From IMG/VR virus record IMGVR_UViG_3300035696_001272: DNA of 64,000 bases; one strand, 5' to 3'. Origin of the DNA: a virus (taxonomy: Duplodnaviria; Heunggongvirae; Uroviricota; Caudoviricetes). Position 1 is the stretch's first letter. The number at the start of each line of letters is the position of its first letter. The position numbers were made by a program, and so were the translations under genes. Below the pieces are notes generated by a model. That model did no database searches, was not told the origin of the DNA, and saw only the letters and a list, made by a program, of their open reading frames with translations. Positions 25,398 through 48,679 of this stretch are shown here, in pieces.

Positions 25398-25667
25398 ATG
25401 ATTTGTGAAGTCTTCCAAGTTAACGATAATCCTGATCATCTACTATTGGTAACACTGGACGGTGAAGTTATCAATGGATTCTGGCATATCAATAATGCTG
25501 ATAAGTATGGTCTTAAGATAACCATGTTGGGCTACATTGAGTGGCCTTGGAAAAATGAATCTGATAATGAGGATTACAATATCACTCTTGCTAGGTTCAG
25601 AGATGGCGAAAGAGCGGCAGTGGAAACGTGTCCTACCTGTGGTCATAAAGAATGGAAAAGTAAATGA
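25398..25667 (+). CDS. hypothetical protein with C-terminal CPTCGH knuckle
   Basis: 89 aa. Confidence 0.35.
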   Translation: MICEVFQVNDNPDHLLLVTLDGEVINGFWHINNADKYGLKITMLGYIEWPWKNESDNEDYNITLARFRDGERAAVETCPTCGHKEWKSK

Positions 25668-26812
25668 GCAAGCATCCTGTATTAGATTTGATTGAGAAGA
25701 GAAGCCCACATCTTGGGTGGATACAGGAAGGAACTGTCTTGTTGGTTCGACATGGTTCTCATGCTTATGGTACCAACACAGCCACCTCAGATGAAGACTT
25801 CAAAGGCATTGCTATTCCTCCTAGAAAGTATTTCCTAGGAACCATGCATCGTTTTGAGCAAGCTGAATTGAAAGCTCCAGATCCAGATGCTGTTATCTAT
25901 GACATTCGTAAATTCTTCAATCTGGCTGCCGATTGCAACCCGAACATCATCGAAGTGTTGCATACTGATCCTTCGGACCACTTCATTGTGGACCCAATCG
26001 GTGAAGTCATCTTGGAACACAAGAACGAATTCTTGTCTAAGAAAATCAAGCATACCTTCTTGGGTTACTCCGTGGCTCAATTGAAGAGAATCAAGACTCA
26101 CAAGCGCTGGATTATGAATCCACCTAGCGCCCCTCCTACAAGAGCTAGCTTGGGATTGCCAGAACAGACTTTGATTCCAAACGATCAGCTGATGGCTGCC
26201 ACAGCTGAAGTGCAAAAGGAATTGGATCGATTCCAGTTCGATTTCATGGAAGGTTTGGAAGAGTCTCAAAAGATTGGGATTCGTACTACTGTTTCTGAAA
26301 TGCTGGCGGAACTCAAAATCACTGCCGATCAGCATTGGGAAGCTGCGGCTCGCAAGATTGGCCTGACTGATAACTTTATTGAAATCATGCAGCGCGAGCG
26401 CCAGTACACCAGCGCTAAACGTGAGTGGGATCAGTATCAGAACTGGAAAAAGACTCGTAACCCAACTCGTTCCGCCTTGGAAGAGAAGTTTGGTTACGAT
26501 ACTAAACATGCCTATCACTTGGTCCGACTCATTCGTATGTGTCGAGAGATCTTGACCACAGGTGTTGTTCAAGTGAAAAGACCTGACCGAGAAGAACTGT
26601 TGGCTATTCGTAACGGAGCTTGGACTTATGATCAGTTGATTGAATTCGCTGATCGTGAGGACAAAGCCCTTGCCGAGTTGTATAACACTTCTACAGCTTT
26701 GCCTAAGACGCCCGACAAAGAAAAGCTGGATCAACTTTGTATTCGATTGGTGCAAATGGCCTTGTCGAAATACTCGTGGTACAACGTCCGTAAACTATTT
26801 GGAGGCTCTTGA
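25664..26812 (+). CDS. Pol-beta-superfamily nucleotidyltransferase (PF10127 'predicted nucleotidyltransferase'-like; RNA-repair associated)
   Basis: ATGA overlap; LVRHGSHAYGTNTATSDEDFKGIAI = hG[GS]-x10-DxD NTase core; 382 aa. Confidence 0.5.
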   Translation: MSKHPVLDLIEKRSPHLGWIQEGTVLLVRHGSHAYGTNTATSDEDFKGIAIPPRKYFLGTMHRFEQAELKAPDPDAVIYDIRKFFNLAADCNPNIIEVLHTDPSDHFIVDPIGEVILEHKNEFLSKKIKHTFLGYSVAQLKRIKTHKRWIMNPPSAPPTRASLGLPEQTLIPNDQLMAATAEVQKELDRFQFDFMEGLEESQKIGIRTTVSEMLAELKITADQHWEAAARKIGLTDNFIEIMQRERQYTSAKREWDQYQNWKKTRNPTRSALEEKFGYDTKHAYHLVRLIRMCREILTTGVVQVKRPDREELLAIRNGAWTYDQLIEFADREDKALAELYNTSTALPKTPDKEKLDQLCIRLVQMALSKYSWYNVRKLFGGS

Positions 26813-27219
26813 TGTTTGCCTATTTGTTTGCATCTTTATTTGAATTTGCATTGATTGTGGTTGCCGTAGTGGTGGTGTATCAGGTCTTCTTGTCAGACCT
26901 GATTGCCGCCAAACGCTCTCAATGGAAAGAGAGTAAAGAGAAGTACAGTAGCATGGATAAGATTGCTCAAGTCAAATTAGTATCGGATGATGCCAAGGAG
27001 ATTGAGAAATTCGTGACAGACAATGCCCAATTCATATCCAACAATATGGTTAACAAATTGGTCGAGCGTATTGAGTATTTACATGCTGACAAATACATTG
27101 CCAGCAATGAAGATACGTTGAAGAAGCGCATTGCCGATTTACCTCAGCAACCTGAGGCAGAAGAGATTGGCGTGCTGGATGAGTCAGCTGATAAAAAGAC
27201 TAAAACTAAAAGGAAGTAA
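26809..27219 (+). CDS. membrane-anchored coiled-coil protein
   Basis: N-terminal TM segment FEFALIVVAVVVVYQVFL. Confidence 0.4.
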   Translation: MMFAYLFASLFEFALIVVAVVVVYQVFLSDLIAAKRSQWKESKEKYSSMDKIAQVKLVSDDAKEIEKFVTDNAQFISNNMVNKLVERIEYLHADKYIASNEDTLKKRIADLPQQPEAEEIGVLDESADKKTKTKRK

Positions 27220-27220
27220 T

Positions 27221-27790
27221 ATGCCAAGACCATTAAACCCCAATGTACTTGTAATTGATGTAGAAAGCACCTGTTGGGAGCTACCCGAAATACAAGGTAA
27301 AGATGAAATCTCTGAGATTATCGAAATTGGTATTGCCGTTGTTAATATCAACGATCTCAAGATTATCAAAAATGATTCGATTATGGTTCGCCCCCAAAGA
27401 TCAAAAGTTAGCAAGTTTTGCACCAAATTGACTACCTTAACCCAAGAAATGGTTAATAAGGGAGTTTTATTCAGTGAAGCTATGAGAATTCTGAAGAAGG
27501 ATTATCAATCAGATGATAGCACTTTCGTTAGTTGGGGAGACTACGATCGCAAGATGTTTGAGAGGAACTGTCGTGACTATGAGGTCAAGTACCCCTTTGG
27601 ACCGCGCCATATGAATCTTAAAAATTCTTTCACCATGCTCCATGGGCTGGACAGAGAACCGGGCCTTGATACCGCCCTGGATTATCTTGGAATGAAACTA
27701 GAAGGCACTCATCACCGAGGGGTTGATGATGCGAAAAACATTGCTAATGTCTTTATTCATACCTTAAAGCAATTTAGGGGTATCGAGTAA
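27221..27790 (+). CDS. DEDDh 3'-5' exonuclease (DnaQ/oligoribonuclease-like)
   Basis: LVIDVESTC (Exo I DxE), FVSWGDYD (Exo II), HRGVDDAKNIANVF (Exo III H..D). Confidence 0.6.
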   Translation: MPRPLNPNVLVIDVESTCWELPEIQGKDEISEIIEIGIAVVNINDLKIIKNDSIMVRPQRSKVSKFCTKLTTLTQEMVNKGVLFSEAMRILKKDYQSDDSTFVSWGDYDRKMFERNCRDYEVKYPFGPRHMNLKNSFTMLHGLDREPGLDTALDYLGMKLEGTHHRGVDDAKNIANVFIHTLKQFRGIE

Positions 27791-27808
27791 TTTTCAGGCA
27801 TTAACTTA

Positions 27809-28156
27809 ATGGAAGCAAACAAGAATTACCAGATTACTGTTTCGCCGGAAGCGGCCAAACAGGTTAAGCTTCAGCTGGAAAAGCGAGGGACTCCAAATGC
27901 CCATCTTAGATTGGGTGTTAAGGGTGCCGGCTGTTCTGGCTATTCTTACGTTATTCAATTTGAAGATTCTGCTCCAAGAGAGAAAGACAAACTCTTTCAA
28001 ATGCATGACATCAGTGTCGTAGTAGATATTAAGAGCTTGGTTTACCTTAATGGTTGTACTTTAGATTGGGAAAAGACCTTAATACATCAGGGCTTCAAGT
28101 TCATTAATCCGAATGAGAAGTCAAAATGTGGATGCGGTCATTCTTTCTCAGTTTGA
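27809..28156 (+). CDS. HesB/IscA-family Fe-S cluster insertion protein (second copy)
   Basis: GAGCSGYSY...KCGCGHSFSV. Confidence 0.65.
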   Translation: MEANKNYQITVSPEAAKQVKLQLEKRGTPNAHLRLGVKGAGCSGYSYVIQFEDSAPREKDKLFQMHDISVVVDIKSLVYLNGCTLDWEKTLIHQGFKFINPNEKSKCGCGHSFSV

Positions 28157-28169
28157 TAAAGGAATTAAC

Positions 28170-28394
28170 ATGATTCATGGAATCTACCTACGAAGCAGGC
28201 CCAAAAACAAGTGGCACCTAGTGTCATTAGCAATGTCTCCAGAAGCAGCAAATCTTGAGATAGCAACTTTCAAAAAGCAAGCTGAACAAGAGGGTAACGA
28301 ACAAGCGGAAGTGGCTGTCCAAATTTTCGATACAGTCTTCTGGATTCCTGAGTATGTAGACGAGATTAAAGAACAAAAACCAATGTTCAATTAA
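28170..28394 (+). CDS. hypothetical protein
   Basis: AAGGAA RBS before ATG 28170. Confidence 0.35.
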   Translation: MIHGIYLRSRPKNKWHLVSLAMSPEAANLEIATFKKQAEQEGNEQAEVAVQIFDTVFWIPEYVDEIKEQKPMFN

Positions 28395-28397
28395 GCT

Positions 28398-29348
28398 ATG
28401 TTATCACAAGATTTTTACGATTACTTATTGCACTTCGAGATAAATGAAGCGTCTCCCGAAAGCCTGGCAAATTTTACCAAGCTTGTGGAGTTAAATAAAG
28501 TATTTGAATATATGTTTGAAACATATATTAATCAACGTCTGAAAGAAAATTTCCACTCTCAGTATCTGTTGAATTTGATTCGTAATCTAGAAAAATCAGA
28601 GAAGACTAGTCATCTTAGTAAGTTGGTCAATGAGCGGTTAGTGGTCTTCATGACCATAAATAGAGAGTGCTTTGATCATTTCTATTATTTATACCGTAAT
28701 GAATTCCGTAAAGAAAGAAATGTTCTTGACGCCCTGATTGAGAATTTGGGCAGAACGCCTCAATCTCGGTTTGAAGAGATGATGCAAATTATCGACTTGA
28801 TTTCTCCCAATATTGGTATCGACAAGTATTCTCTAATACTTCTAATAATGGAATCGAAGGGCCCTGGCGGTAAAGCTCGCAGGTTACTTAACAGTGTAGT
28901 TATGGGTAAGCTAGAAGTGCCCGATCGCTACATGGTTCTAGTTAGGGCTGTGGAAAAACATAGTTCCCAAGTTTATGATTTACAAAACGCCCTGGTTGCA
29001 GAGTTTAAAGTCTTTGTCTCCAATCAATTCAAAACGAACAAAGATCAGGACGTTTTAGCATTGGCTTTACAAAGATGCATGCTTCCAATTACTCAATTGT
29101 ACAATTGTACATTCTTGAATGAGGTCTTATATCATAATGCAGAAAACATTCCACATACTCTAGACTATTTATACCATAGGGCTGAGTCTGAGAATTTATG
29201 GGAATATCTTCTTCTATTAGGCGTTAATAAGAACAAAAAAGAGTTGTTACAGAGTATTGTTAAATCCAAGAGTCATCGTCTAATTGATAAATTTTTCTTA
29301 CTATACAAGAATTACCCAGAGGTAAAGCATCTTGCTCCTTTCCTATGA
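28398..29348 (+). CDS. hypothetical protein
   Basis: 316 aa; helical. Confidence 0.45.
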   Translation: MLSQDFYDYLLHFEINEASPESLANFTKLVELNKVFEYMFETYINQRLKENFHSQYLLNLIRNLEKSEKTSHLSKLVNERLVVFMTINRECFDHFYYLYRNEFRKERNVLDALIENLGRTPQSRFEEMMQIIDLISPNIGIDKYSLILLIMESKGPGGKARRLLNSVVMGKLEVPDRYMVLVRAVEKHSSQVYDLQNALVAEFKVFVSNQFKTNKDQDVLALALQRCMLPITQLYNCTFLNEVLYHNAENIPHTLDYLYHRAESENLWEYLLLLGVNKNKKELLQSIVKSKSHRLIDKFFLLYKNYPEVKHLAPFL

Positions 29349-29388
29349 GATGGCATGTTATATAGTTACATGATATCTCAAGGGAAAC

Positions 29389-30495
29389 ATGTCGAATGCT
29401 CTGAATCTCACAGAAATAGATCAAGAACAAGCTCTTAATCTTACCAAGTTTTTTATCCAATCACAACAGAATGTTTTTTTGTTTGGAAGACGAGGTGTAG
29501 GTAAGACAGACATTGCTATTCAAGCGGCCAAAGAATGTGGATATAAAATCAATTATATTAATCTAAGTGTAATTGAAAGGCCTGATTTGGCTGGCTATCC
29601 AGATATGAATACGGAAAGCGATATCATTAATTATAAATCGCCCCACTTCTTACCAAAGCTTCTACCTGATTCTAAACCAGACAGTATTATTCTGTTTGAT
29701 GAAGTGGATAAAGTTCAAGCAGAAGTAACCGCTCCCCTATTAGAGATTCTATTGTTCAAGAAGATCAATGGTATACCCATCAATGCTGCTGCCTGTATTT
29801 TAACCGGCAACTTGATGAATGAAGGCGCTTACTCCAATGAGCTTAGTTCAGCCTTGTTAGATCGAGGCGCTAAGTACATTTTGACATTCAATTTTGAAAA
29901 GTGGGTGGATTGGGCCAAGGCACATAACGTGCATGATCTTATTCTCGGTTTTTTGCGCAGCGATCCAGATTTTGCTTGTGGAAAAGTAGAAGAATCTGTT
30001 TACGCTTCGCCATCACCTAGAAGTTGGACATGGGCATCACAAGCTTTGTTGAAGGCCAAGGAACTCAAAATAGGCGATATAGATTCGGTCACCCAAATCA
30101 TCTCCGGTTATGTCGGATTTGAAGCGGCCCTAAGGTTCAAAATTTGGTATGAGTATTTTCGTAAGTTTGAGCCTTTCGTTCATTCACTAATTGAACGTGG
30201 CGAAATGTCTCTCGATTTCAGTAGCTTAGCACCTACTGAGAAAGTTGTCTTCGTAGTATCTGCTTGTTATTATGCAAAACAGAAAGTCTTTTCTGTGAAA
30301 TCTAAGAATAGATTTGTATATCTAGAGCACTTATGTAACTTTTTCAACCAATACAAAGTAGAAGCTGAAGTTCAGGTCATGGGGTTACATAACTCTTTTG
30401 ATTTTGACATGATCAGGGCGCACAAGCTATACACTTGTCAGCCATTTTTTGATCACTTTACTAAGTTGAGTGAGAACGTTACATTCAAGAAGTGA
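29389..30495 (+). CDS. MoxR-like AAA+ ATPase (paralog of 19903..21030, no adjacent VWA partner)
   Basis: FGRRGVGKTD, ILFDEVDKV, LTGN; same domain order as the first copy. Confidence 0.6.
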   Translation: MSNALNLTEIDQEQALNLTKFFIQSQQNVFLFGRRGVGKTDIAIQAAKECGYKINYINLSVIERPDLAGYPDMNTESDIINYKSPHFLPKLLPDSKPDSIILFDEVDKVQAEVTAPLLEILLFKKINGIPINAAACILTGNLMNEGAYSNELSSALLDRGAKYILTFNFEKWVDWAKAHNVHDLILGFLRSDPDFACGKVEESVYASPSPRSWTWASQALLKAKELKIGDIDSVTQIISGYVGFEAALRFKIWYEYFRKFEPFVHSLIERGEMSLDFSSLAPTEKVVFVVSACYYAKQKVFSVKSKNRFVYLEHLCNFFNQYKVEAEVQVMGLHNSFDFDMIRAHKLYTCQPFFDHFTKLSENVTFKK

Positions 30496-30502
30496 TGACG
30501 CA

Positions 30503-30531
30503 CCCTTGACATCCTATTTATAGGATTTAAG
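30503..30531 (+). promoter_or_regulatory. conserved promoter-like motif CCCTTGACATCCTATTTATAGGATTTAAG (copy 1)
   Basis: 26 of 29 nt identical to 36806-36834; contains TTGACA, a 16 nt spacer and TAAGCT; 14 nt before the trx ATG. Confidence 0.45.
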
Positions 30532-30545
30532 CTCTAAAGCGAGGC

Positions 30546-30878: not shown

Positions 30879-30904
30879 GTTACGTTTTAACAATTTAATA
30901 TTGA

Positions 30905-30937
30905 AAAAGGGCCGGCGTTTGCTGGCCTTTAGCTTTT
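30905..30937 (+). terminator. rho-independent terminator
   Basis: AAAGGGCCGGC-GTTT-GCTGGCCTTT hairpin, then a T-rich run. Confidence 0.55.
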
Positions 30938-30944
30938 TGATCAA

Positions 30945-32992: not shown

Positions 32993-33294
32993 TGATTCTA
33001 GCTAAGCCGGAAAAACCACAAAAGAAGATAACTCAAAGACAAACTGCGACTTACAACTTTGATTGGGTTAGTAAGAAAGTTTCTTGGGATGGTTTTCTAG
33101 ATTGGGCTAAGGAAACTATTCCGGCTGGCGCTAAAGACGTTACGCTGGAACTAATAGAAGATTGGCAATATGATGATTGCATTACATATCTAGAATTATC
33201 TTGGGATGAGATAGTTACTAATCCTAATTATGATAAAGAGATGAAGAAGTACGAAAGGAAACTTGCAAAGTGGAAAAAAGAATGCCAAGAGTAA
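32989..33294 (+). CDS. hypothetical protein
   Basis: 101 aa. Confidence 0.35.
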   Translation: MMILAKPEKPQKKITQRQTATYNFDWVSKKVSWDGFLDWAKETIPAGAKDVTLELIEDWQYDDCITYLELSWDEIVTNPNYDKEMKKYERKLAKWKKECQE

Positions 33295-34217
33295 CCATGG
33301 TGATGGGCTATCCTGCTAGTGGGAAAAGCACTTTAACCAAAACGATAGTTAAGCACGGGGCCATCTCGCTTAATCGTGATACAGAAGGTGGCACTATTGC
33401 CGACCTTTTGCCAAAGATGGAAGCACTGCTCCAAGATCGCAAAGATGTAGTTCTAGACAATCTGTTTCCTACCGTTGAAGTTCGTAAACCATTTATCGAG
33501 ATGGCAGCCAAACACAAAGCTGAGATTGCTTGTATTCTTATGGATACCAGTATCGAAGACGCTCAGTTCAATGTTGTTCAGCGAGCTATTGGCTTAATTG
33601 GTAAGTTTCCAACTCCTGAAGAGATTAAAAAGGCCAAACACACCAATATTTTCCCGCCATTGGTTCTATTCAAGTATAAGAAGGATTTTCAAAAGCCAAC
33701 AACGGAAGAGGGATTCAAGTTCGTAACGACTGAAAAGTTTGTTCGTCAGGACAATCCTAACTTCACTAATAAGGCTCTCATTGTAGATTATGACGGCACT
33801 CTCAGAGAATGTATCAATGGTAACGATAAGTATCCTGTCAATAAGGATCAGATTGAGATTAAACCGAATCGTACAGAAGTTCTCAAGTCGTATAAAGACA
33901 AAGGATATATCTTGTTGGGCGCCTCCAATCAAAGCGGCATTGCCAAAGGCGAGGTTAGTGAGCAAGTTGTTACTGAATTGTTTGAGTACACCAATAAACA
34001 ATTAGGCATTGATATAGAGTACCGCTTCTGCTCTCATCAATCAGCGCCCATCAGTTGCTATTGTCGCAAACCGATGAATGGAATTGGCGTTGAATTCATA
34101 CTGAAACACAAACTAGATCGCAAACAGTGTATTATGGTTGGCGACATGACAACTGACAAGACGTTTGCTACTCGCTGCGGCTTCCAGTATGTTGATCAAG
34201 CGGAGTTCTTTAAATGA
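33282..34217 (+). CDS. polynucleotide 5'-kinase / 3'-phosphatase (T4 Pnk-like), copy 1
   Basis: P-loop MGYPASGKSTL; C-terminal HAD phosphatase LIVDYDGTL...GDMTTDK. The start is ambiguous (GTG 33270, ATG 33282 or 33297). Confidence 0.7.
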   Translation: MPRVTMVMGYPASGKSTLTKTIVKHGAISLNRDTEGGTIADLLPKMEALLQDRKDVVLDNLFPTVEVRKPFIEMAAKHKAEIACILMDTSIEDAQFNVVQRAIGLIGKFPTPEEIKKAKHTNIFPPLVLFKYKKDFQKPTTEEGFKFVTTEKFVRQDNPNFTNKALIVDYDGTLRECINGNDKYPVNKDQIEIKPNRTEVLKSYKDKGYILLGASNQSGIAKGEVSEQVVTELFEYTNKQLGIDIEYRFCSHQSAPISCYCRKPMNGIGVEFILKHKLDRKQCIMVGDMTTDKTFATRCGFQYVDQAEFFK

Positions 34218-34483
34218 AAGAATCAATTAAGACAGAGTGTGGCTCTTGTGGTGGCACCGGTATTTATTGTGGCTTTGCGGAGCCAGAGGGTACTGGTGTA
34301 ATTTGTTTTAACTGTGACGGCAGTGGTTGTCGAATCATTGAGTACGTTCCCTTTACTAGCCGAAAGGAACGTAGGAATGTCAGCAAAGTGATGCGCTCTC
34401 GTGGCACATTTATTGGAACGGGTGTGGGGCCGGTGGGCGACTACATAACTTATGAAGATTTTCTAAAGGGTAAGAAGCCATGA
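34214..34483 (+). CDS. zinc-ribbon protein
   Basis: CGSCGGTG...CFNCDGSGC. Confidence 0.35.
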   Translation: MKESIKTECGSCGGTGIYCGFAEPEGTGVICFNCDGSGCRIIEYVPFTSRKERRNVSKVMRSRGTFIGTGVGPVGDYITYEDFLKGKKP

Positions 34484-34803: not shown

Positions 34804-35799
34804 ATGATTAAGGTAGAGATGTTAGTCGGTATTCCCGGTTCAGGTAAATCCACGTATGCCAAGCAGGTGGTTGCCAAGGATCCATCCAACTATGTTCGAA
34901 TCAACAACGATGATTTACGAGCAATGATGAACGGCTCCGTTTGGTCTGCCGATTATGAGAAGATGATTACGGATGCCCGCAACTACCTAATCCGAGACGC
35001 CCTTAAGCGAGGCAAGAACGTCATCATTGACAACTTGAACCTCAACCGTCGTCACTTCGATGATGTGTGTAAGATTGCCAAGTCTGTCAACACAGACGTT
35101 CAAGTCTTTGAGAAGGCTTTCTATATCGAATTGGAAGATGCTCTAGAGCGTAACTCCAAGCGTGAAGGTGCGGCTCGTGTACCTGATGACGTTGTCAAGA
35201 AGTGGTGGAAGGATTCTGGTGGTAAGCAGTTTAGGCATTATCATCCACGTGTTGAAATCTTCCAAGAGCACAAAGGCAACCTACAATCGTTGGCAGAGGC
35301 TCCTGCTAACGTTCCAGGTGCACCAGAAGCAGTTTTGTGCGACTTGGACGGTACATTAGCCCTGATTCATGGCAGAAGCCCCTACGATGCTTCCGACTGT
35401 GATATCAAGGACTTCCCAAACGTTCCTGTTATCGAAACCATTCTTGCCCACTACGCAGCTGGTCGCAAGATCATCTTCTGTTCGGGCAGGGAAGACAAAT
35501 ACCGACCAGAAACTGTTAGATTCATTGAGAAGTGGGTGACACACCCCAAATACGTTGTGAAAACTGACACTACTTTTGGGCCAGAAGGAGATATGGTTAA
35601 TAGACCTATTCCATATCAGCTTCATATGCGTAAGACTGATGACTTCCGTAAGGATGCCATCATCAAAGAAGAAATCTATAAGGAACACATTGAAGGTAAG
35701 TATAATGTGTTGCTTGTCTTAGATGACCGCGATCAAGTGGTCGAGTTTTGGAGGGGCAAGGGCTTAACTTGCTTCCAAGTCGCTTATGGCAATTTCTGA
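34804..35799 (+). CDS. polynucleotide 5'-kinase / 3'-phosphatase (T4 Pnk-like), copy 2
   Basis: P-loop VGIPGSGKST; HAD motifs LCDLDGTLA and LVLDDRD. Confidence 0.7.
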   Translation: MIKVEMLVGIPGSGKSTYAKQVVAKDPSNYVRINNDDLRAMMNGSVWSADYEKMITDARNYLIRDALKRGKNVIIDNLNLNRRHFDDVCKIAKSVNTDVQVFEKAFYIELEDALERNSKREGAARVPDDVVKKWWKDSGGKQFRHYHPRVEIFQEHKGNLQSLAEAPANVPGAPEAVLCDLDGTLALIHGRSPYDASDCDIKDFPNVPVIETILAHYAAGRKIIFCSGREDKYRPETVRFIEKWVTHPKYVVKTDTTFGPEGDMVNRPIPYQLHMRKTDDFRKDAIIKEEIYKEHIEGKYNVLLVLDDRDQVVEFWRGKGLTCFQVAYGNF

Positions 35800-36834: not shown

Positions 36835-36842
36835 ATAGGTGT

Positions 36843-37604
36843 ATGATCAAGCTACCACGAACGCTACACATTGAGGGCTCCAGGCTTCCCAAGGGGAAGA
36901 CCGATCCCGAGGCGGTAGAATTTAATAAATTAGCTGGTCAATTTCTAGTGGTAGAAGAAAAGGTAGATGGCACTGGTGTCAGCCTGTTTTTTGACAAAGA
37001 CTGGAATCTACAGATTTGGCATAGAGGTAGCCCTGCCAATTCAAAAGAGTTCTACCAACTGCATCGATGGGCCGCAAATTACACCAATCAATTGTTTGAT
37101 ACTCTAGAAACTAGATACGCTCTATTTGGCGAATGGATGCATCAAAAACATACTATCTTTTACGATAGCCTTCCACATTATTTTTTGGAATCGGACATCT
37201 ACGATAGTAAAGAAAATGTATGGCTTTCTACTAAGGCAAGAAATCAATTGCTGACTAAATGTCGTCCATTTATGTTTTCAGTGCCTATCGAAAAAGCTTT
37301 CAAACCAACTCGCCTAGTTGATGTAACAAGATTAGTTACTCGTCCCATGTATCAATCGTTGCATTGGCGAGAGCGTCTTTGGAAATCTTGCGAGAGATTC
37401 AACTTAAATCTAGAGGAAGTTCTTAAACAAACTGATCAATCGGATTTAATGGAAGGGTTGTATATCAAGCATGAAGATGATCAAAAGGTCATCGGACGAT
37501 ACAAATATGTTCGTTATGAGTTCGTAGAGAACATTATTAATTCTGGCTCTCATCTTAGAGACAGACAACCTATACCAAATTTACTTTCTTCGGAGATATT
37601 CTAA
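36843..37604 (+). CDS. ATP-dependent RNA/DNA ligase-family nucleotidyltransferase (small Rnl-like, copy A)
   Basis: Motif I VVEEKVDGTGVSL (KxDG); FGEWMHQKH (motif IV-like); paralog of 42227..42892. Confidence 0.5.
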   Translation: MIKLPRTLHIEGSRLPKGKTDPEAVEFNKLAGQFLVVEEKVDGTGVSLFFDKDWNLQIWHRGSPANSKEFYQLHRWAANYTNQLFDTLETRYALFGEWMHQKHTIFYDSLPHYFLESDIYDSKENVWLSTKARNQLLTKCRPFMFSVPIEKAFKPTRLVDVTRLVTRPMYQSLHWRERLWKSCERFNLNLEEVLKQTDQSDLMEGLYIKHEDDQKVIGRYKYVRYEFVENIINSGSHLRDRQPIPNLLSSEIF

Positions 37605-37867
37605 TGTATATCATTTTCGGAATAGTGCTATTGGCTTTCATTTATCTTTTGTGGAAGCTGTTCATTGATGGATGGCTTTTCAAGATCATTCTGTTTTTTG
37701 GCGGCTGGTTTGGGATTTATGTGTTCTGTCGAATGCATCTCGAAGGGGCCACTAAAGTTGGAATTACTATCGGTGTCGATAACCCCATCTCTTTTACGTG
37801 GGCAGCAGTAGTCCCAACTGTTATATGTTTTCTAGTTCTTTTATTTACAAAGGTTCACAATGACTAA
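37604..37867 (+). CDS. membrane protein
   Basis: Three hydrophobic helices. Confidence 0.4.
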   Translation: MYIIFGIVLLAFIYLLWKLFIDGWLFKIILFFGGWFGIYVFCRMHLEGATKVGITIGVDNPISFTWAAVVPTVICFLVLLFTKVHND

Positions 37868-38288: not shown

Positions 38289-38292
38289 AATT

Positions 38293-39540
38293 ATGTTACT
38301 AGTTCAACAGTATTTGGAAACTCATAACTTCAATGAATTGATTAGGGATCATGGTGTTTATCCATCTTTCTCTAAATCAGATCGTAAGTTCTCTTTGAAT
38401 TATGATCAAATTGAAGCAAAGGAAAGTGATCCTTTGGCCCAAGAATGCCGTGGGCTAGTCTTGTCTCGTGAAGATGGTCGTTCAATATTCGAAGACCAAA
38501 ATGCTAAATTTCCTGGTGTGGAATATGATCGTTATAGCATTTCGCCTGGTAAGACCAAGGTTCTAGCATATCCTATGAAGCGATTCTTCAACTATGGCCA
38601 AGGATCTGCGGCCGAAATTAATTGGAGCGATCCATATCTGGCGGTATTAGAAAAGTTGGACGGAACTCTATGCATCGTATATTGGGATCCATTCACCGAT
38701 CAATGGTGTGTGGCAACTCGCTCAGTTCCCGAAGCAGACTTGCTGATGGACAACGGTATCTATACTTTTCGAACTTTGTTCGAGAAGGCTGTAGAAGACA
38801 CGACTGAATTGACCTTCAATGCACTAACGGGATGCCTTGATAAAGGCTATACTTATTGTTTCGAATTGACCACCCCATACAATCGTATTGTGGTGCACTA
38901 TCCAAACAATGGTGTAACTTTGCTTGCGGCTCGTGATTTAGCTACTTGTAAGGAAGTAGATTTTTATCACGAGGTAGTTCAATATCTAAACTGTGTAGTT
39001 CCATTTGTGCAAGCACACACGTACACGTCTGTGCAAGAACTTGTGGATTGGGTATCTTCATTAAACCCAATGGAACACGAAGGTGTTGTAGTTAGAGACT
39101 CTAAGTTCAACCGTATCAAGGTCAAGAATGCGGCATACGTAGCTTACAACAAGGTACGTGACGCTTTAGGAACTTCTGAACGTAATTGCGTCGAATTGAT
39201 TCTGTCAGAAAAAGATGACGATGTCATCCCAATGCTGCCAGAAGAGATTGTCAAGAACCTTCAGAAGCTCAAGGTCGGTGTTCAGGCAACTATCAAAGAG
39301 CATGATGAGGCTTATAAAATGGCCAAGGCTAAGGCTGATTTGATGGCGCCAGGTGATAAGAAGACTTTTGCTATTTTGGTTACCCAAAACAAGAGTTTAT
39401 GGTCAGCCCCATTCTTTCAAATGTTCGAGGGTAAAGTCTCGAATATGAAGGACTTTATTGCTAAGAACCGCAAAGACGGTACTTGGGGCAATAGTTTTCT
39501 TGATAAGATGCTGGAATTGGCAAAAATTCATTCGCCCTGA
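38293..39540 (+). CDS. RNA ligase, T4 Rnl1-like
   Basis: Motif I LEKLDGTLCIVYWD (KxDG[ST]L); 415 aa. Confidence 0.5.
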   Translation: MLLVQQYLETHNFNELIRDHGVYPSFSKSDRKFSLNYDQIEAKESDPLAQECRGLVLSREDGRSIFEDQNAKFPGVEYDRYSISPGKTKVLAYPMKRFFNYGQGSAAEINWSDPYLAVLEKLDGTLCIVYWDPFTDQWCVATRSVPEADLLMDNGIYTFRTLFEKAVEDTTELTFNALTGCLDKGYTYCFELTTPYNRIVVHYPNNGVTLLAARDLATCKEVDFYHEVVQYLNCVVPFVQAHTYTSVQELVDWVSSLNPMEHEGVVVRDSKFNRIKVKNAAYVAYNKVRDALGTSERNCVELILSEKDDDVIPMLPEEIVKNLQKLKVGVQATIKEHDEAYKMAKAKADLMAPGDKKTFAILVTQNKSLWSAPFFQMFEGKVSNMKDFIAKNRKDGTWGNSFLDKMLELAKIHSP

Positions 39541-39642
39541 TATATAGGGAATTTGGAGGGGTTGACGCCACCTAAAACTGGCGTTACCCTTCCAGTGACC
39601 TTCCACGGTCCTAACCTTTTTATTTTCTTTATGGAGGTAATC

Positions 39643-40092
39643 ATGTTATCACTTTGGAATCCATTAGTTCCTGTTAGGGAACGTTCGGATAGTAGAATGT
39701 CAGTAAAGAATTATTTCGACCGTTTGTTCGAGGATTCTTTTACTGCTATGACTCATGACCTATTCACTGCCCCTTGGGCTGGCCTAGGAATTGAGAACAA
39801 AAAGAATGAAGACGGCACTTTAGCTGTTTCCATTGACATTCCTGGTATCAAGGAAGAAGACATCACTATTGAAGTCAAAGAGGACGTAGTGCATGTCAAA
39901 GGTAAGCGTACTACCGCCACTTCCTCTTATGAAGTGAGCAAAGCATTCAACATCCCTGAAGGTTACACTTCAGATGATGTGAGGGCCGAGCTAACCAACG
40001 GTGTACTAACCCTGACACTTGCTGCCAAGCAGCTCCCTCAAAAAGAGGTAAAGAAGATACCAATAACTTCTCCTGTTAAACAGTTGAAGTAA
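39643..40092 (+). CDS. Hsp20/alpha-crystallin small heat-shock protein
   Basis: GGAGGT RBS before ATG 39643; alpha-crystallin core AVSIDIPGIKEEDITIEV...ELTNGVLTLTL. Confidence 0.65.
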   Translation: MLSLWNPLVPVRERSDSRMSVKNYFDRLFEDSFTAMTHDLFTAPWAGLGIENKKNEDGTLAVSIDIPGIKEEDITIEVKEDVVHVKGKRTTATSSYEVSKAFNIPEGYTSDDVRAELTNGVLTLTLAAKQLPQKEVKKIPITSPVKQLK

Positions 40093-40096
40093 GTTG

Positions 40097-40139
40097 AAAA
40101 AGGGCCGGTTGATTAAATCAACCGGCCCTTTTGTTTTTG
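40097..40139 (+). terminator. strong rho-independent terminator
   Basis: AAAAAGGGCCGGTTGAT-TAA-ATCAACCGGCCCTTTT perfect hairpin plus GTTTTTG. Confidence 0.8.
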
Positions 40140-40164
40140 CTATTAATTACGATATATACTATGT

Positions 40165-40878
40165 ATGAACAAATACATGTATGAGAGTGATTATAGTGGA
40201 GACTCTCTTAGATGGCTTACTAAGATTACCGAATTAAATCCTAAGTTCGGTAACGATGAAGAGCTTGAGAAACTTCAGGATGAAATAATTGCAGCCAAAG
40301 ATGCTGCTATGGCTTACTTCTTTGCAAGCGAATTTTCATATAAACATTACCGAATGCAAAAGGTAGTACTAGATAAAAAAGATCCTAAGTACGCTTTCGC
40401 ATTTGCTCAACATATTCCCAACGCCGATATCAAAGCATTACAAAACGTAGTCGTTGATTCAAAGAAGATTAAATACATTACCAAATTTGCCTGCTTCGTT
40501 AAACAAGCCGACCGCAAACTTTTAGAATCAGTCATTCTCAAATCTAAAAAAGTCAAGTATGCCCACATGTTACTCAAGCATGTAAAGGGCGTTGACGTTA
40601 ATAAATTCAAACAGATTATCCTTGAATCAAATAAACCACGATATCTATTCGAATTAGCTAAGCATACTCATTCGCCATCCGATATCGAGATGATAGAGGA
40701 TTTAATTATCAAATCTAACTCCTTTACTTACATGCGTCTTTTTGCTGAAAAGATAAAGAAGGCCAACGTAGATAAGATTGAACAAGCTGTTTTAGCAACT
40801 GATAATGGAGTTGAAATCAAGAAATTCGCTAAATATGTGCGAAAATCAAAGATGAAACAGTTCTTATTAGTTATGTAA
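40165..40878 (+). CDS. tandem-repeat protein (about six 29-aa Lys-rich helical repeats)
   Basis: Repeating [KN]K.[KR]Y...FA..[IV]...D.......[VI]L.S units. Confidence 0.45.
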   Translation: MNKYMYESDYSGDSLRWLTKITELNPKFGNDEELEKLQDEIIAAKDAAMAYFFASEFSYKHYRMQKVVLDKKDPKYAFAFAQHIPNADIKALQNVVVDSKKIKYITKFACFVKQADRKLLESVILKSKKVKYAHMLLKHVKGVDVNKFKQIILESNKPRYLFELAKHTHSPSDIEMIEDLIIKSNSFTYMRLFAEKIKKANVDKIEQAVLATDNGVEIKKFAKYVRKSKMKQFLLVM

Positions 40879-40879
40879 G

Positions 40880-41290
40880 TTGGTGTTATTATTGCATTGT
40901 CTTATGATTAAGACAATCAAGCATGGTGTCAATCTGATAAGACACGCTCTAAGAGATGTAGGAGTTAGCGAAAAGCGCTCTTCCAAATGGCCAACTCTAG
41001 AGAAACATTTCCTGGCCGAACATCCAACATGTGAAGCTTGTGGCAGTAAGAAGCGCTTAAATGTGCATCATTGCAAGCCTTTTCATTTAGACCCAGCCCT
41101 AGAGTTAGATCCAAACAATCTAATTACGCTATGTATGGATACCAAAGAGTGCCATCTGCATCTTGGTCATGGCGGCTCTTTCAAACAGTATTGTCCAGAC
41201 GTTAGAAAGTATGCTGCAGAAGCTTTGGCACATCCTGACAAATTTGATAATCTTGTTAAGGAAGCTTTAGCTAATAGAAAAGTTAACTGA
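40880..41290 (+). CDS. HNH nuclease
   Basis: CEACGS...NVHHCKPF...NNLITLC...CHLHLGH. Confidence 0.55.
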   Translation: MVLLLHCLMIKTIKHGVNLIRHALRDVGVSEKRSSKWPTLEKHFLAEHPTCEACGSKKRLNVHHCKPFHLDPALELDPNNLITLCMDTKECHLHLGHGGSFKQYCPDVRKYAAEALAHPDKFDNLVKEALANRKVN

Positions 41291-41303
41291 TATAGGAATC
41301 AAG

Positions 41304-41900
41304 ATGCGCCTATTCCTTTGGTCTCTCATTTTCACCGTCATATTGCTGGTCGGATTTGCACAAGTTGTTACGCCCTTTATTAAACATAAAAGTGTTGAAC
41401 ATAAATTACCAATTCACAAAACTTTATATGTAGAGCGCTACATCGAAGATGATGAATTGTTTTATATTTTTAGGGCAACGATGGAGTGGAATAAAGTTAC
41501 CAACGGCCAAGTAACCTTTGACATCAAAAGATTGCCTCAAAGAGAAATAATGGTTACGGATGCTATTGTAGTAGTTAACGTTAGCCCAGATTATCCAGAA
41601 GTCATTATGTTGGATGCATCTAAGAATCAAAAAACACTAGGCTACTGTAATATGAGTGGCTTACCTTTCATAGCCTTGATTCCAGAGAGATTAGATGATA
41701 AGATTTATACTCAGGTCATGTTACATGAACTTGGACATTCATTGGGGCTAGAACATGTTGAAGGTGATGCCGGAATAGGTATGTTGATGTATCCGACAGT
41801 CGAGCACGGTTCTTTGCATATTACTGATGGTGATTTATTTCAACTCTGTATGTTGTATCATTGTGATCCAAGGAAGTTCCATGGAGTGGACGAAAATTGA
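41304..41900 (+). CDS. secreted or membrane-anchored zinc metalloprotease (metzincin)
   Basis: N-terminal hydrophobic leader LWSLIFTVILLVGFA; HELGHSLGLEH zinc-binding motif; Met-turn candidate. Confidence 0.6.
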   Translation: MRLFLWSLIFTVILLVGFAQVVTPFIKHKSVEHKLPIHKTLYVERYIEDDELFYIFRATMEWNKVTNGQVTFDIKRLPQREIMVTDAIVVVNVSPDYPEVIMLDASKNQKTLGYCNMSGLPFIALIPERLDDKIYTQVMLHELGHSLGLEHVEGDAGIGMLMYPTVEHGSLHITDGDLFQLCMLYHCDPRKFHGVDEN

Positions 41901-42216
41901 TGTAACTCGATGTCCTACTTGCGGTTCAAGGTGGATGCGAAAGGCAAGAAAGAATTCATACACTGATTGTTCTAATAGAAGTGAATGTGGGACATGGAAG
42001 GTTCAATTTGAAAACATCAATCCCTTGCCAATTATCTGCAAACAATTTGATGATGGTAAAGGTTGGTATTACGTAATTGAATGGGATCTAACAAATAAAA
42101 AGTGTAAGGTTTCAAGCGTCAATATGTCAAAAGGTGCTCCAGTAATAAGATTTGATTTTGCATTACCATTTACAATAACTTTAGAAAAGCTAGAAATATA
42201 TTTGTTATTCTCATAA
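41881..42216 (+). CDS. hypothetical protein with N-terminal zinc ribbon
   Basis: AAGGAAG RBS; CPTCGS...C..C. Confidence 0.35.
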   Translation: MEWTKIDVTRCPTCGSRWMRKARKNSYTDCSNRSECGTWKVQFENINPLPIICKQFDDGKGWYYVIEWDLTNKKCKVSSVNMSKGAPVIRFDFALPFTITLEKLEIYLLFS

Positions 42217-42226
42217 CGGTGCTATC

Positions 42227-42892
42227 ATGGATTCCCCCAAATATAATAGAACATTCCATTTGCCCTGGAGTCCTGGTGGGACCTCGGATGACAAGATAGC
42301 TACGTCCGTTGATAATCTAATTGGTAAGCCTATCATCATTACTGAAAAGATAGATGGTTCAAATACTTCTTTAGAGACTAAAGGATGTTTTGCGCGTACT
42401 CATTCTGGCGCACCATCTCATCCATCTTTTGATGGCCTTAAAGCTTTGCACGCAACACTCAAGCATAAGATTCCTGCCAACTACCAAATGTTTGGTGAAT
42501 GGTGTTATGCACTTCATTCGATTGCCTATAATGAGCTGCCGGGATATTTTCTTCTTTTCAACATTAGAGAACTAAACGAAGTTCTTCCAACCATTTGGCT
42601 TTCTTGGGCAGAAGTTAAAATGTGGGCAGAAGATATTGGAGTTCCAACAGTTCCAGTCTTATTCGAAGGAATTGTAAAGTCAGAATCTGAATTGAAGATT
42701 TTAACAGAATCTTTTATGAAAGAAGCTTCTTGTTGCGGTGGTATAAGGGAGGGCGTGGTTGTCCGTTTAGCCAATCAATTTCAAGATAATGACTTCTCCA
42801 ATTGTGTGATGAAGTGTGTTCGTGCAAACCATGTACAAACTTCGGATCATTGGAAAGATCAGGAAATCATTAAGAATAAATTAAAGTCCTAA
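42227..42892 (+). CDS. ATP-dependent RNA/DNA ligase-family nucleotidyltransferase (small Rnl-like, copy B)
   Basis: Motif I ITEKIDGSNTSL; FGEWCYALHS; LPGYFLLFNI parallels copy A (LPHYFLESDI). Confidence 0.5.
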   Translation: MDSPKYNRTFHLPWSPGGTSDDKIATSVDNLIGKPIIITEKIDGSNTSLETKGCFARTHSGAPSHPSFDGLKALHATLKHKIPANYQMFGEWCYALHSIAYNELPGYFLLFNIRELNEVLPTIWLSWAEVKMWAEDIGVPTVPVLFEGIVKSESELKILTESFMKEASCCGGIREGVVVRLANQFQDNDFSNCVMKCVRANHVQTSDHWKDQEIIKNKLKS

Positions 42893-42901
42893 TTTGGGTG
42901 C

Positions 42902-42929
42902 TTGACTCCCCCGGCATCTGCGTTATATT
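42902..42929 (+). promoter_or_regulatory. sigma70-like promoter
   Basis: TTGACT, 16 nt spacer, TATATT; downstream TTATGTGAA also occurs after the promoter at 19865. Confidence 0.45.
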
Positions 42930-42980
42930 ATGTGAATAACTAGACATCAGATACAGGGGAATTTAACGAAGGATAGAACT

Positions 42981-43247
42981 ATGGGTTTACGTAGATTTCA
43001 TTTCGAAAGATTGGAAGATGCGTCTGGAGTAAGTGGTTGTGGAAGAGTAGCTGAAGGCTGCTTATTTACTGATACTGGAGAGGCCGTTGTCCACTGGTTG
43101 GGCGGTCACGGAAGTATTAACGTATACCACTCCATTGATGATGTGATCTATGTTCATGGTCATGAGGGTAGGACTAAGCTTATCTTCGATGATCCACAAC
43201 CTGTTGAAAGCGGAAAGAAAGAAGAATTAAAGAAGGATGGAAACTAA
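42981..43247 (+). CDS. hypothetical protein
   Basis: 88 aa. Confidence 0.35.
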   Translation: MGLRRFHFERLEDASGVSGCGRVAEGCLFTDTGEAVVHWLGGHGSINVYHSIDDVIYVHGHEGRTKLIFDDPQPVESGKKEELKKDGN

Positions 43248-43959
43248 GTTACGCACAATATTCATTGGCGACATTCATGGTTGTATTGATGAGTTCAATG
43301 AGCTACTTGAAAAACTCAAGTATGATCCACAAGGAGATGAACTCATCCTATTAGGAGATTTGGTAGATCGCGGCCCCGATTCTGTGGCGGTCGTTCAGAA
43401 AGCTAGAGAGATGAATGTAAAGTGCCTTATGGGCAACCATGAACACAAGTTCGTCAAATGGTTCAGATCACAAGGAACCAAAGTAGATGTTTATGATCGT
43501 AGAGACTACTACGGAAAGTTATCCGATCAAGATATTGTTTATATTCACGACATGCCACTCTATGTTGAGTTTGCAGATGTCATTGCAGTTCACGCCGGGT
43601 TAAAACCCGGCATTCGTTTATCTGAGCAGTCAAAAGATGATCTCATGTACTTGAGATACACTGATTCAGATAGGAAATTCATTAGTCTCAAAAAAATCAA
43701 CAAGCTAGGCAAGGAACAACTTGGCGCTAGGTTCTGGACAGAGTTCTGGTCAGGGCCAAAGAGTGTAGTGTATGGGCACAACGTTCACTCTTACACAGAT
43801 CCTCTTATTGAGGAGACGGCTCCAGGTGTAACTTGTTATGGCATAGATACCGGCTGTTGCTTTGGTGGACGACTAACCGCCCTCATTTGGGAGACCAAGG
43901 AAATCGTCCAGGTCCAAGCGAAAAAGGCATATTACAAATCAGACTTCGAAATAAGATAA
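43237..43959 (+). CDS. PPP-family Ser/Thr or diadenosine-tetraphosphatase-like metallophosphatase
   Basis: GDIHGC, GDLVDRGP, GNHE motifs (lambda-PPase/ApaH-like). Confidence 0.65.
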   Translation: METKLRTIFIGDIHGCIDEFNELLEKLKYDPQGDELILLGDLVDRGPDSVAVVQKAREMNVKCLMGNHEHKFVKWFRSQGTKVDVYDRRDYYGKLSDQDIVYIHDMPLYVEFADVIAVHAGLKPGIRLSEQSKDDLMYLRYTDSDRKFISLKKINKLGKEQLGARFWTEFWSGPKSVVYGHNVHSYTDPLIEETAPGVTCYGIDTGCCFGGRLTALIWETKEIVQVQAKKAYYKSDFEIR

Positions 43960-43990
43960 ATCACTCCAACCAACCTGAGGTACTACCAAC

Positions 43991-44506
43991 ATGAAAGAGA
44001 AAAAAGCCGACCTGTTCGAAACCATTTTTGAGGACAAAGTTGATGCGATATGCATCACAACAAACGGACAATATACTCTAGATGGTAAGGCGGCTATGGG
44101 TGGTGGATGTGCAGGAGTTTGTGCCAAGCGCTGGCCCACTACAGCGATTAGATTGGGCAAGTGTTTGAAGAACTTCGGCACCAATGTTCCATTCGTAATT
44201 GGAGCGCTCGATGTCAAAGGAAACTATATTGACATCACTCTCAAGATGATCAAGGAACGTAAGTTCAAGTGCTTGATACTCAGCTTCCCAACTATCAACA
44301 ACTTGATTGATGGGGCCAGCTTAGATCTGATCAAGCGGTCAGCTCTTGAGTTAAGGGTAATGGCTGACAAGTATGATTTAAGAAACATAATTGTCCCTCG
44401 ACCAGGTGTTGGTATAGGCGGCTTGACATGGGGTGATGTCAAATCAGTCTTAGAACCAATTCTCGACGACAAATTCACAATCGTTTCTTTTGAACACGAG
44501 GAATAA
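43991..44506 (+). CDS. macro-domain-like protein
   Basis: VDAICITTNG...AMGGGCAGV resembles the macro N-terminal DAIVNAAN...GGGGVDGAI. Confidence 0.4.
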   Translation: MKEKKADLFETIFEDKVDAICITTNGQYTLDGKAAMGGGCAGVCAKRWPTTAIRLGKCLKNFGTNVPFVIGALDVKGNYIDITLKMIKERKFKCLILSFPTINNLIDGASLDLIKRSALELRVMADKYDLRNIIVPRPGVGIGGLTWGDVKSVLEPILDDKFTIVSFEHEE

Positions 44507-48678: not shown

Positions 48679-48679
48679 G

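Follow-up and report, generated by a model that had tools for sequence, protein, structure and literature searches.

The DNA stretch analysed here, 64,000 nt from the virus record IMGVR_UViG_3300035696_001272 (the window), probably carries an expanded T4-type toolkit of RNA healing and sealing enzymes, whose genes are loosely clustered on the + strand within 25664-44506 (~19 kb), the main stretch of this study. The encoded enzymes include the nucleotidyltransferase RlaP, an exonuclease, two polynucleotide kinase-phosphatases (Pnk1 and Pnk2) and three RNA ligases, which, judged by homology, are best explained as a set that heals and seals RNA ends, of tRNA in particular. Gene presence, family assignment, catalytic motifs, folds and synteny were determined directly, the last by comparison with about 45 related IMG/VR loci (labelled L003, L029 and so on). 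A preliminary description of this DNA had named these enzymes from the letters alone; all of them were recovered on the + strand at the same places or within a few codons, with intact catalytic motifs and E-values far beyond chance.

The window is phage-like, with dense packing and overlapping genes. Metagenome contigs as large as 0.2-1 Mb encode an identical Rnl1-like ligase, and identical or 70-85% identical proteins were found on contigs of 476-498 kb. A megablast search of the whole stretch against GenBank phages gave no match, therefore no annotated near relative exists there. Because of the protein matches on large contigs and the missing megablast match, the source of the window is an uncultured clade of jumbo or huge phages of ~480 kb; within such a phage, the stretch belongs to the accessory arm.

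Probable enzymes for healing and sealing of RNA ends

The genes assigned to RNA repair families are the following:

25664-26812, + strand: RlaP, RNA-ligase-associated Pol-beta nucleotidyltransferase, 382 aa (PF10127, E-value 2.4e-20)
27218-27790, + strand: ERI1/KapD-type DEDDh 3'-5' exonuclease, 190 aa (RNase_T, 5.6e-18)
33297-34217, + strand: Pnk1, N-terminal AAA_33 kinase and C-terminal PNK3P/HAD-IIIA (GmhB/PNK3P-like) phosphatase
34804-35799, + strand: Pnk2, T4 Pnk/Pnkp1-type (AAA_33 and HAD_PNKP, 2.2e-46)
36843-37604, + strand: Lig1, 253 aa, adenylyltransferase domain only (PF09414, 1e-23), motif I EEK40VDG
38293-39540, + strand: Rnl1-family RNA ligase, 415 aa (PF09511, 4.4e-15), motif I LEK121LDG
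42227-42892, + strand: Lig3, 221 aa, Rnl2-like adenylyltransferase domain only (PF09414, 1.2e-29)

Pnk2 aligned over its full length with Capnocytophaga Pnkp1 (4XRP, 6e-48) and T4 Pnk (1LTQ, 2.3e-36), matched phrog_505 of PHROGs (2.7e-78) and carries the motifs GIPGSGKST (aa 9-17), NNDDLR (34-39), DLDGT (180-184), SGRE and DDRDQ. It is a predicted 5'-kinase and 3'-phosphatase of the T4 Pnk/Pnkp1 type, and its gene was found in all relatives with sequence at that position. Pnk1, for which alternative starts exist (the first ATG is at 33282, and the open reading frame (ORF) opens at a GTG at 33270), carries the P-loop GYPASGKST (aa 4-12), NRDT (26-29), DYDGT (164-168), SNQSG, CRKP and GDMTTD. 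Since its kinase was nearest to mammalian PNKP (1YJ5, 1.6e-13), its phosphatase is of the HAD-IIIA type (TIGR01662, 1.7e-20) and the kinase precedes the HAD domain, Pnk1 is PNKP-like in sequence and T4-like in domain order. The Pnk1 gene is missing from four relatives (L003, L004, L006, L012). The claim of two complete T4 Pnk-like kinase/phosphatases was thus borne out, both proteins having an N-terminal kinase and a C-terminal HAD phosphatase with P-loop and DxDGT motifs. Generic P-loop kinases were considered for both and rejected because of this HAD domain. Between the two genes, 34214-34483 encodes an 89-aa protein with two CxxCxGxG motifs (DnaJ zinc-finger-like), which is present in only some relatives.

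The alignment of the Rnl1-like ligase spans positions 1-227 of the 227 positions of the PF09511 profile. T4 Rnl1 (2C5U) was matched at 3e-7 in an alignment that includes motifs I, III, IV and V, and K121, E191, E263, K276 and K278 correspond to K99, E159, E227, K240 and K242 of the T4 enzyme, the catalytic roles of which are established. With TIGR02308 the protein scored 68 bits (7.8e-19), below the equivalog cutoff of 242; it is placed in the Rnl1 family by its sequence, without an ortholog-level match to T4 RnlA. Its gene is present in all relatives of the clade.

Lig1 and Lig3 are paralogs with 26-28% identity. The motifs of Lig3 are TEK41IDG, FGEW, REGVVVR and MKCVR, and EKxDG, FGEW, EGxxx(R/K) and KxVR were invariant in an alignment of 24 sequences of the Lig1/Lig3 family. 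Searches of both proteins against PDB sequences, with single sequences and with profiles, gave nothing significant. Structure prediction was therefore needed, and in Foldseek a confident AlphaFold2 model of Lig3 (pLDDT 91) matched T4 Rnl2 best (1.2e-6), followed by Naegleria Rnl5 (NgrRnl), archaeal Rnl3 and fungal Trl1 ligase domains; matches to DNA ligases were two to three orders of magnitude weaker (2Q2T 4.6e-4 vs. 1.2e-6 for Rnl2). The model covers the nucleotidyltransferase domain only, with TMt values of 0.38-0.41 against full-length Rnl2. The Lig3 family is large (2367 clusters at 50% identity) and includes several other forms (P0122, P0132, P0155, P0156, P0161, P0233), namely fusions to HNH, tandem ligase domains, a ligase-Pnk kinase-ligase arrangement, a ligase interrupted by an intein with a LAGLIDADG endonuclease and a fusion to a topoisomerase I domain. 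In P0161 two ligase domains are joined to a Pnk-type kinase, which supports a role of the Lig3 family in RNA repair. The Lig1 gene is missing from seven relatives (L006, L007, L009, L012, L014, L015, L016).

The preliminary description had counted three ATP-dependent RNA ligase-family genes, one of them Rnl1-like, and had allowed that the ligases might lack the KxDG lysine or be DNA ligases or capping enzymes, and that the Pnk-like proteins might lack a phosphatase domain. One PF09511 and two PF09414 proteins were found, each of the three has the KxDG lysine as well as motifs III, IV and V, and each of the two Pnk proteins has the HAD domain. DNA ligase or capping enzyme identity of Lig1 and Lig3 was rejected, since no oligonucleotide-binding (OB) domain was found by Pfam or in the Lig3 model.

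RlaP scored 73.7 bits with PF10127 (gathering threshold 23), matched phrog_388 of PHROGs (1.4e-68) and has the GS (aa 31-32, GSHAYG) and DxD motifs (DED, aa 43-45, SDEDF) of Pol-beta enzymes; a search against PDB sequences returned spurious matches only. About 25 IMG/VR contigs have an ortholog with 70-86% identity in the corresponding place. The exonuclease most likely starts at the ATG at 27218. Its closest solved relative is human ERI1 (1W0H, 4.5e-16), to which all five DEDDh residues align (IDVEST (D/E), WGDYD (D) and HHRGVDDA (H...D)), and the KapD model NF005838 was matched at 1.8e-30 with 106 bits, below the equivalog cutoff of 169. Both genes had been read as a PF10127-like nucleotidyltransferase and a DEDDh exonuclease before, and this assignment was upheld. 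A small ORF (26809-27219) overlaps and links them, with the exonuclease directly downstream, and the adjacency of RlaP and exonuclease is kept in L021, L026, L033, L034 and L041. The two enzymes could trim and refill RNA 3' ends. RlaP, which is NrdC.11 in T4, is reported to add one or two nucleoside monophosphates (NMPs) to RNA 3'-OH ends, to act on RNA only in the published assays and to be required if over-damaged tRNA is to be aminoacylated again after repair (PMC12776372).

Two IscA/HesB-like Fe-S assembly proteins (25072-25395 and 27809-28156) flank the RlaP-exonuclease pair, and a NifU-like scaffold is encoded at 61935-62375 (E-value 2e-52); the phage thus encodes Fe-S cluster biogenesis genes. 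In the distant phage L048, a gene for a matrixin-like metallopeptidase lies directly 3' of RlaP (11109-11753), and a homolog is found in the window at 41304-41900.

The stable core of the clade is RlaP, Pnk2, the Rnl1-like ligase and Lig3, with Pnk1 and Lig1 as variable extras. Substrates and order of steps are inferred from the biochemistry of homologous families (T4 Pnk, Rnl1 and Rnl2; Pnkp1; RlaP). Host anticodon nucleases or other ribotoxins would cut tRNA or other RNA, giving 2',3'-cyclic phosphate or 3'-phosphate and 5'-OH ends. Pnk2, together with Pnk1 in some members of the clade, would then strip the 3' phosphate and phosphorylate the 5' end to give 3'-OH and 5'-phosphate ends. Where 3' nucleotides are damaged or lost, the ERI1-like exonuclease would trim the end and RlaP would add back one or two NMPs. 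The Rnl1-family ligase would seal breaks in tRNA loops, and the minimal ligases Lig3 and Lig1 would join other substrates, for instance nicked duplex regions.

The Acb5, metallophosphoesterase and macro domain genes

Downstream of Lig3, the stretch ends with three genes:

42981-43247, + strand: Acb5-family protein, 88 aa (PF26761 on record for the identical protein, not marked as weak)
43237-43959, + strand: PPP, ApaH/Pnkp-phosphatase-like binuclear metallophosphoesterase, 240 aa (Metallophos, 1.6e-17)
43991-44506, + strand: Macro, divergent macro domain of the DarG/TARG1 clade, 171 aa (DarG NF048014, weak at 5.9e-6)

The Acb5-family gene, which was not listed in the preliminary description, shares its last 11 nt with the start of the PPP gene, and its product matched phrog_7499 of PHROGs (1.4e-19). 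Acb5 is reported to cleave 3'3'-cyclic GMP-AMP (cGAMP) to 2',3'-cyclic mononucleotides (2',3'-cNMPs), which blocks CBASS, and R10, W38 and H61 of Acb5A are essential for this anti-CBASS activity (bioRxiv 10.1101/2025.07.12.664507). These residues are matched here by R10, W39 and H61, of which R10 and W39 are invariant in the relatives and H61 is conserved in all full-length homologs. PPP has the metal-binding motifs GDIHG (11-15), GDLVDRG (40-46) and GNHE (66-69). It matched the ApaH model NF001204 (1e-31) and positions 185-420 of bacter_Pnkp (6.6e-27), both below the equivalog cutoffs, and among PDB sequences 2QJC (1.4e-26) and the phosphatase of Clostridium thermocellum Pnkp (CthPnkp, 4J6O, 7.6e-18), the ApaH-type matches being the closest. 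A homolog of Macro with 68% identity (P0386) carries PF01661. The top matches of Macro to PDB sequences were spurious PPR-repeat proteins, and in Foldseek its AlphaFold2 model (pLDDT 94.8) matched DarG (5M3E, 1.1e-9, TMt 0.79), TARG1 and Poa1p. In the region aligned with DarG and TARG1, Macro reads SFPTIN, with I102 invariant in the clade, at the site that presumably holds the catalytic lysine of DarG and TARG1. The earlier assignment to a PPP/ApaH-like phosphatase and a macro-like domain therefore agrees with motifs and fold.

The order Acb5-PPP-Macro is kept in nearly all relatives, and the three proteins are most likely a counter-signalling or ADP-ribose module, to judge from their homologs and neighbours. 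In such a module, Acb5 would cut cGAMP into 2',3'-cNMPs, PPP may process these or other nucleotide signals and Macro would remove ADP-ribose adducts or signals. The same + strand arm encodes a eukaryote-style PARP-like protein with WGR, PARP regulatory and catalytic domains (10073-11473), a NADAR domain protein (1758-2189), a YpsA/SLOG protein (6679-7197) and an NMNAT-like cytidylyltransferase (11936-12511). These genes fit the NAD/ADP-ribose conflict theme of jumbo phages (PMC7824862).

The preliminary description had treated PPP and Macro as repair parts. PPP could be a 2',3'-cyclic phosphodiesterase and 3'-phosphatase like the phosphatase domain of CthPnkp, and Macro could clear ADP-ribose-1''-phosphate or de-ADP-ribosylate RNA ends. 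Consistent with this are the matches of PPP to bacter_Pnkp, to 4J6O and to phrog_8238, a Pnkp-like kinase-phosphatase-ligase family, the presence of Poa1p among the fold matches of Macro, and a Metallophos gene and an Acb5 homolog near RlaP in L050 and L046, respectively; both roles are also allowed by Iyer et al. (PMC7824862). However, the best matches of PPP are ApaH-type enzymes, the PPP gene always follows and overlaps that of the Acb5 cGAMP nuclease, and the nearest relatives of Macro are DarG and TARG1, not Poa1p. Furthermore, the scan of the window ORFs revealed no Tpt1/KptA or 2H enzyme, and a 3'-phosphatase is already supplied by both Pnk proteins. A role of PPP and Macro as RNA-end healers instead of counter-signalling enzymes is therefore doubtful as a whole, although the Pnkp-like match of PPP speaks for it, and counter-signalling is at least as likely as end healing for the pair.

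Gene order, linkage and alternative readings

Other features in and around the stretch that bear on its organisation are:

30907-30930, + strand: predicted intrinsic-terminator-like hairpin after the thioredoxin gene (10-bp stem, 6 GC pairs, T run)
39637-40092, + strand: Hsp20 (profile match)
40098-40132, + strand: predicted strong intrinsic-terminator-like hairpin after Hsp20 (16-bp stem, 8 GC pairs, T run)
40165-40878, + strand: repeat protein, about seven tandem ~29-aa helical-looking repeats ending in K/R-Y, as read from the sequence
40880-41290, + strand: HNH (profile match)
41304-41900, + strand: matrixin-like peptidase (profile match)
5327-6037, + strand, outside the stretch: Metallophos (profile match)
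17951-19144, + strand, outside the stretch: TyrRS (profile match)
63436-64000, + strand, outside the stretch: Thg1-like 3'-5' polymerase, N-terminal part, cut by the window end (PF04446, 4.4e-16)

All listed genes are on the + strand. Hsp20, the metzincin, HNH, the outside Metallophos and TyrRS genes, 11 tRNAs and the Thg1-like gene had been named before, and each was found. The tRNA genes at 9955-16283 (Leu x4, His, Glu x3, Arg x3) all have an encoded 3'-CCA; the tRNA-His (14599-14675) was called by ARAGORN with a G at -1 and C73 and was below the Rfam gathering score. An Rfam scan found tRNAs only, with no structured RNA within the cluster. The Thg1-like gene lies 19 kb from the stretch, past the sugar cluster on the opposite strand.

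Nine of the 33 ORFs in 25664-44506 are of RNA-end-processing types, and the other 24 are unrelated or of unknown type. Besides Hsp20, HNH and the matrixin-like peptidase, they include an IscA-like Fe-S protein, an AAA ATPase, a thioredoxin and an SPFH protein; the conserved ORFs at 28398, 35786, 36282, 37860, 40165 and 41881 had no match in Pfam and PHROGs. Across the about 45 loci, the order RlaP...AAA...Pnk2...Rnl1...repeat protein...Lig3...Acb5 is stable with 50-86% protein identity, and about 30 related contigs of 130-480 kb share it, their filler genes being variable; Hsp20, HNH, matrixin and SPFH are sporadic. In the compact variants L029 and L043, the distance from RlaP to Lig3 or Acb5 is only about 10.5 kb. 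The fillers turn over around repair genes that stay linked, which points to a real functional neighbourhood.

Beyond the clade, linkage is partial. L044 has RlaP and Pnk2, and L049 has RlaP and Rnl1 within 5 kb. In more distant huge phages homologous repair genes are 120-190 kb apart: the uncultured phage LR745208.1 (485 kb) has RlaP at 272 kb and a Lig3 homolog at 466 kb, and Caulobacter phage CcrBL9 has Rnl1 at 161 kb and a Lig3 homolog at 281 kb. The repair enzymes therefore need no linkage. A co-occurrence analysis in related phages, as the preliminary description had suggested, thus gave a stable order within the clade and partial linkage outside it.

Both predicted terminators lie in intergenic gaps on the coding strand and would divide the stretch into at least three transcription units. 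The first would run from RlaP to thioredoxin, the second would comprise SPFH, Pnk1, Pnk2, Lig1, Rnl1 and Hsp20, and the third the repeat protein, HNH, matrixin, Lig3, Acb5, PPP and Macro. A promoter consensus scan gave 38 sites vs. 48.6 expected and carries no information on these units.

The neighbourhood may also hide repair parts that have so far gone unrecognised, which we regard as unlikely for the proposals as a set. RlaP, the small ORF and the ERI1-like exonuclease may be one translationally linked module that trims and refills RNA 3' ends. The repeat protein is a possible accessory factor; it has only 122 homologs, all at clade level, and is present in all relatives, always between the Rnl1 and Lig3 genes. 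The two minimal ligases may rely on this protein or on a conserved membrane protein (37604-37867) to recognise their substrates. Finally, the Acb5-metallophosphatase pair could couple destruction of cGAMP to removal of the resulting 2',3'-cyclic nucleotides.

According to the preliminary description, the whole of 25664-44506 is one integrated, co-regulated and undescribed anti-ribotoxin system, in which each duplicated enzyme serves a different RNA lesion and PPP, macro, Hsp20, metzincin and HNH are components. The genes are indeed tightly packed and all co-directional, their order is conserved clade-wide, and seven RNA-repair-type genes lie within 17 kb of a ~480 kb genome, for which random placement would be improbable by a rough estimate. 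However, two strong predicted terminator hairpins lie inside the stretch, Hsp20, HNH, matrixin, SPFH, Pnk1 and Lig1 vary among close relatives, the repair genes are far apart in LR745208.1 and CcrBL9, the same co-directional block holds glyoxylate-shunt, PARP, tRNA and Fe-S genes from position 1 on, and the concept of such an ensemble is already in print (PMC7824862). One integrated system is thus quite unlikely. Of the earlier proposal, the assignment of the enzymes to RNA-repair families stands, but the single 19-kb system does not, given the predicted terminators, the 24 unrelated or unknown ORFs, the dispensability of Pnk1 and Lig1 and the dispersal in distant phages. Predicted terminators, distant dispersal and variable membership within the clade speak against a single defined operon or system; the genes encode independent enzymes in a loose neighbourhood, interleaved with proteostasis, redox and mobile genes.

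The co-directional + strand block extends from position 1 to ~44.5 kb. Within it, genes for isocitrate lyase (7198-8430, E-value 4e-106) and malate synthase (8430-9947, 9e-111) adjoin each other, a complete phage-borne glyoxylate shunt. The block is followed on the − strand (44818-61869) by a large sugar/polysaccharide modification cluster with several NAD-dependent epimerases/dehydratases, two DegT-type aminotransferases, a hexapeptide transferase, glycosyltransferases and an 802-aa methyltransferase-GT2-GT6 fusion.

Several observations weigh against RNA-end healing and sealing as the function of all these enzymes. Lig1 and Lig3 have no Rnl2-specific C-terminal domain and both stop 20-30 residues past motif V. 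The isolated adenylyltransferase domain of T4 Rnl2 is defective in overall nick sealing. Because they are without the C-terminal domain needed by T4 Rnl2 for complete nick sealing, Lig1 and Lig3, which also have no OB domain, may need a partner or could act differently. The nearest relative of the Pnk1 kinase, mammalian PNKP, is a DNA repair enzyme, in some lineages ERI1-type exonucleases act on DNA too, and in distant phages the neighbours of RlaP are often DNA replication, recombination or topoisomerase genes (L051, L048, L050). Some or all of the enzymes might thus serve DNA or virion functions and not ribotoxin defence, with Pnk1 and the minimal ligases repairing DNA ends or nicks, e.g. 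after host nuclease attack or in modified DNA, and the Rnl1 homolog acting as a tail-fibre attachment catalyst like T4 gp63. A DNA-3'-phosphatase model also matches Pnk1, PHROG 562 is annotated as 'RNA ligase and tail fiber protein attachment catalyst', and RlaP lies near DNA ligase and recombination genes in L048 and L051. This is very unlikely nevertheless, since the Lig3 fold matches RNA ligases best and is without the OB domain needed by DNA ligases, the nearest relatives of Pnk2 are T4 Pnk and Pnkp1, the latter from an RNA repair complex of bacteria, RlaP used only RNA as substrate in published assays (PMC12776372), and the tRNAs, TyrRS and the Thg1-like gene in the window point to a translation-centred conflict.

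Relation to known RNA repair systems

Healing and sealing of RNA ends by enzymes of this kind is known from T4, which uses PseT, RnlA, RnlB and NrdC.11 against PrrC; the same four families form the core here (Pnk2, the Rnl1-like ligase, Lig3 and RlaP), and Pnk2 shares domain order and motifs with T4 Pnk. Unlike in T4, where the repair genes are dispersed in the genome, they cluster within 17 kb. Other differences are the low identity to the T4 proteins (about 25% for Rnl1), the absence of the Rnl2 C-terminal domain from the Rnl2-like ligases, and the addition of Pnk1, Lig1 and the ERI1-like exonuclease.

The bacterial Pnkp1-Rnl-Hen1 system of Capnocytophaga contains the protein to which Pnk2 is most similar (Pnkp1), and PPP resembles the metallophosphatase domain of Clostridium thermocellum Pnkp. 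In contrast to these systems, the ORFs scanned yielded no Hen1 methyltransferase, the domains reside on separate proteins and not on one kinase-phosphatase-ligase polypeptide, and the ligases are of the Rnl1 and Rnl2-like types, not Rnl4.

The closest precedent is the survey of jumbo phages by Iyer et al. 2021 (PMC7824862), who reported combinations of RtcB, Rnl1 and Rnl2 (all three in BcepSaruman/BcepSauron), HNH-fused Rnl2 and three Rnl2 paralogs in Xanthomonas phage XacN1, together with PNK-HAD, calcineurin-like phosphatases, Macro, RlaP mirroring the ligases, CCA-adding enzyme, Thg1 and large tRNA sets. Ligase paralogs, PNK-HAD, a calcineurin-like phosphatase, Macro, RlaP, Thg1 and many tRNAs are common to those phages and the one described here. 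In the window, a MoxR-like AAA ATPase (19903-21030) is followed by a metallopeptidase-VWA protein (21069-22817, DUF2201_N and DUF2201); such a MoxR/metallopeptidase-vWA pair is reported for group 2.2 jumbo phages (PMC7824862), and the pair at 19903-22817 is thus also shared with that genome type. Unlike those sets, the window ORFs scanned include no RtcB, 2H, KptA, cRec or CCA-adding enzyme, and unlike those phages, this clade is uncultured and without a megablast match in GenBank phages. Specialised, non-redundant ligases for different RNase effectors were already proposed in the same survey. The statement that the ensemble had not been described was therefore mistaken, as both its components and the idea of non-redundant ligases were in print; the ensemble type is already described in jumbo phages, and this phage is a rich uncultured example.

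Possible novelties at the level of the clade are the pairing of RlaP with an ERI1-like exonuclease, the trio of Acb5, phosphatase and macro domain in fixed order, and the conserved repeat protein encoded between the ligase genes. An ERI1/KapD-type exonuclease adjoining RlaP is not mentioned in the jumbo-phage survey (PMC7824862). The 88-aa protein shares family match and functional residues with Acb5 nucleases and the Macro model superposes best on DarG and TARG1; a fixed trio of Acb5, metallophosphatase and macro domain is not described in the Acb5 report (bioRxiv 10.1101/2025.07.12.664507).

If the enzymes work as predicted, this phage would have an unusually compact, co-located healing and sealing set with two Pnk types, an Rnl1, two minimal ligases and RlaP with an ERI1-like exonuclease. 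Such a set would lend itself to comparative work on substrate specialisation and could supply small RNA ligases. It would not be a new category, but would add to the picture of jumbo phages that stock redundant RNA-repair, tRNA and anti-signalling genes against abortive-infection nucleases.

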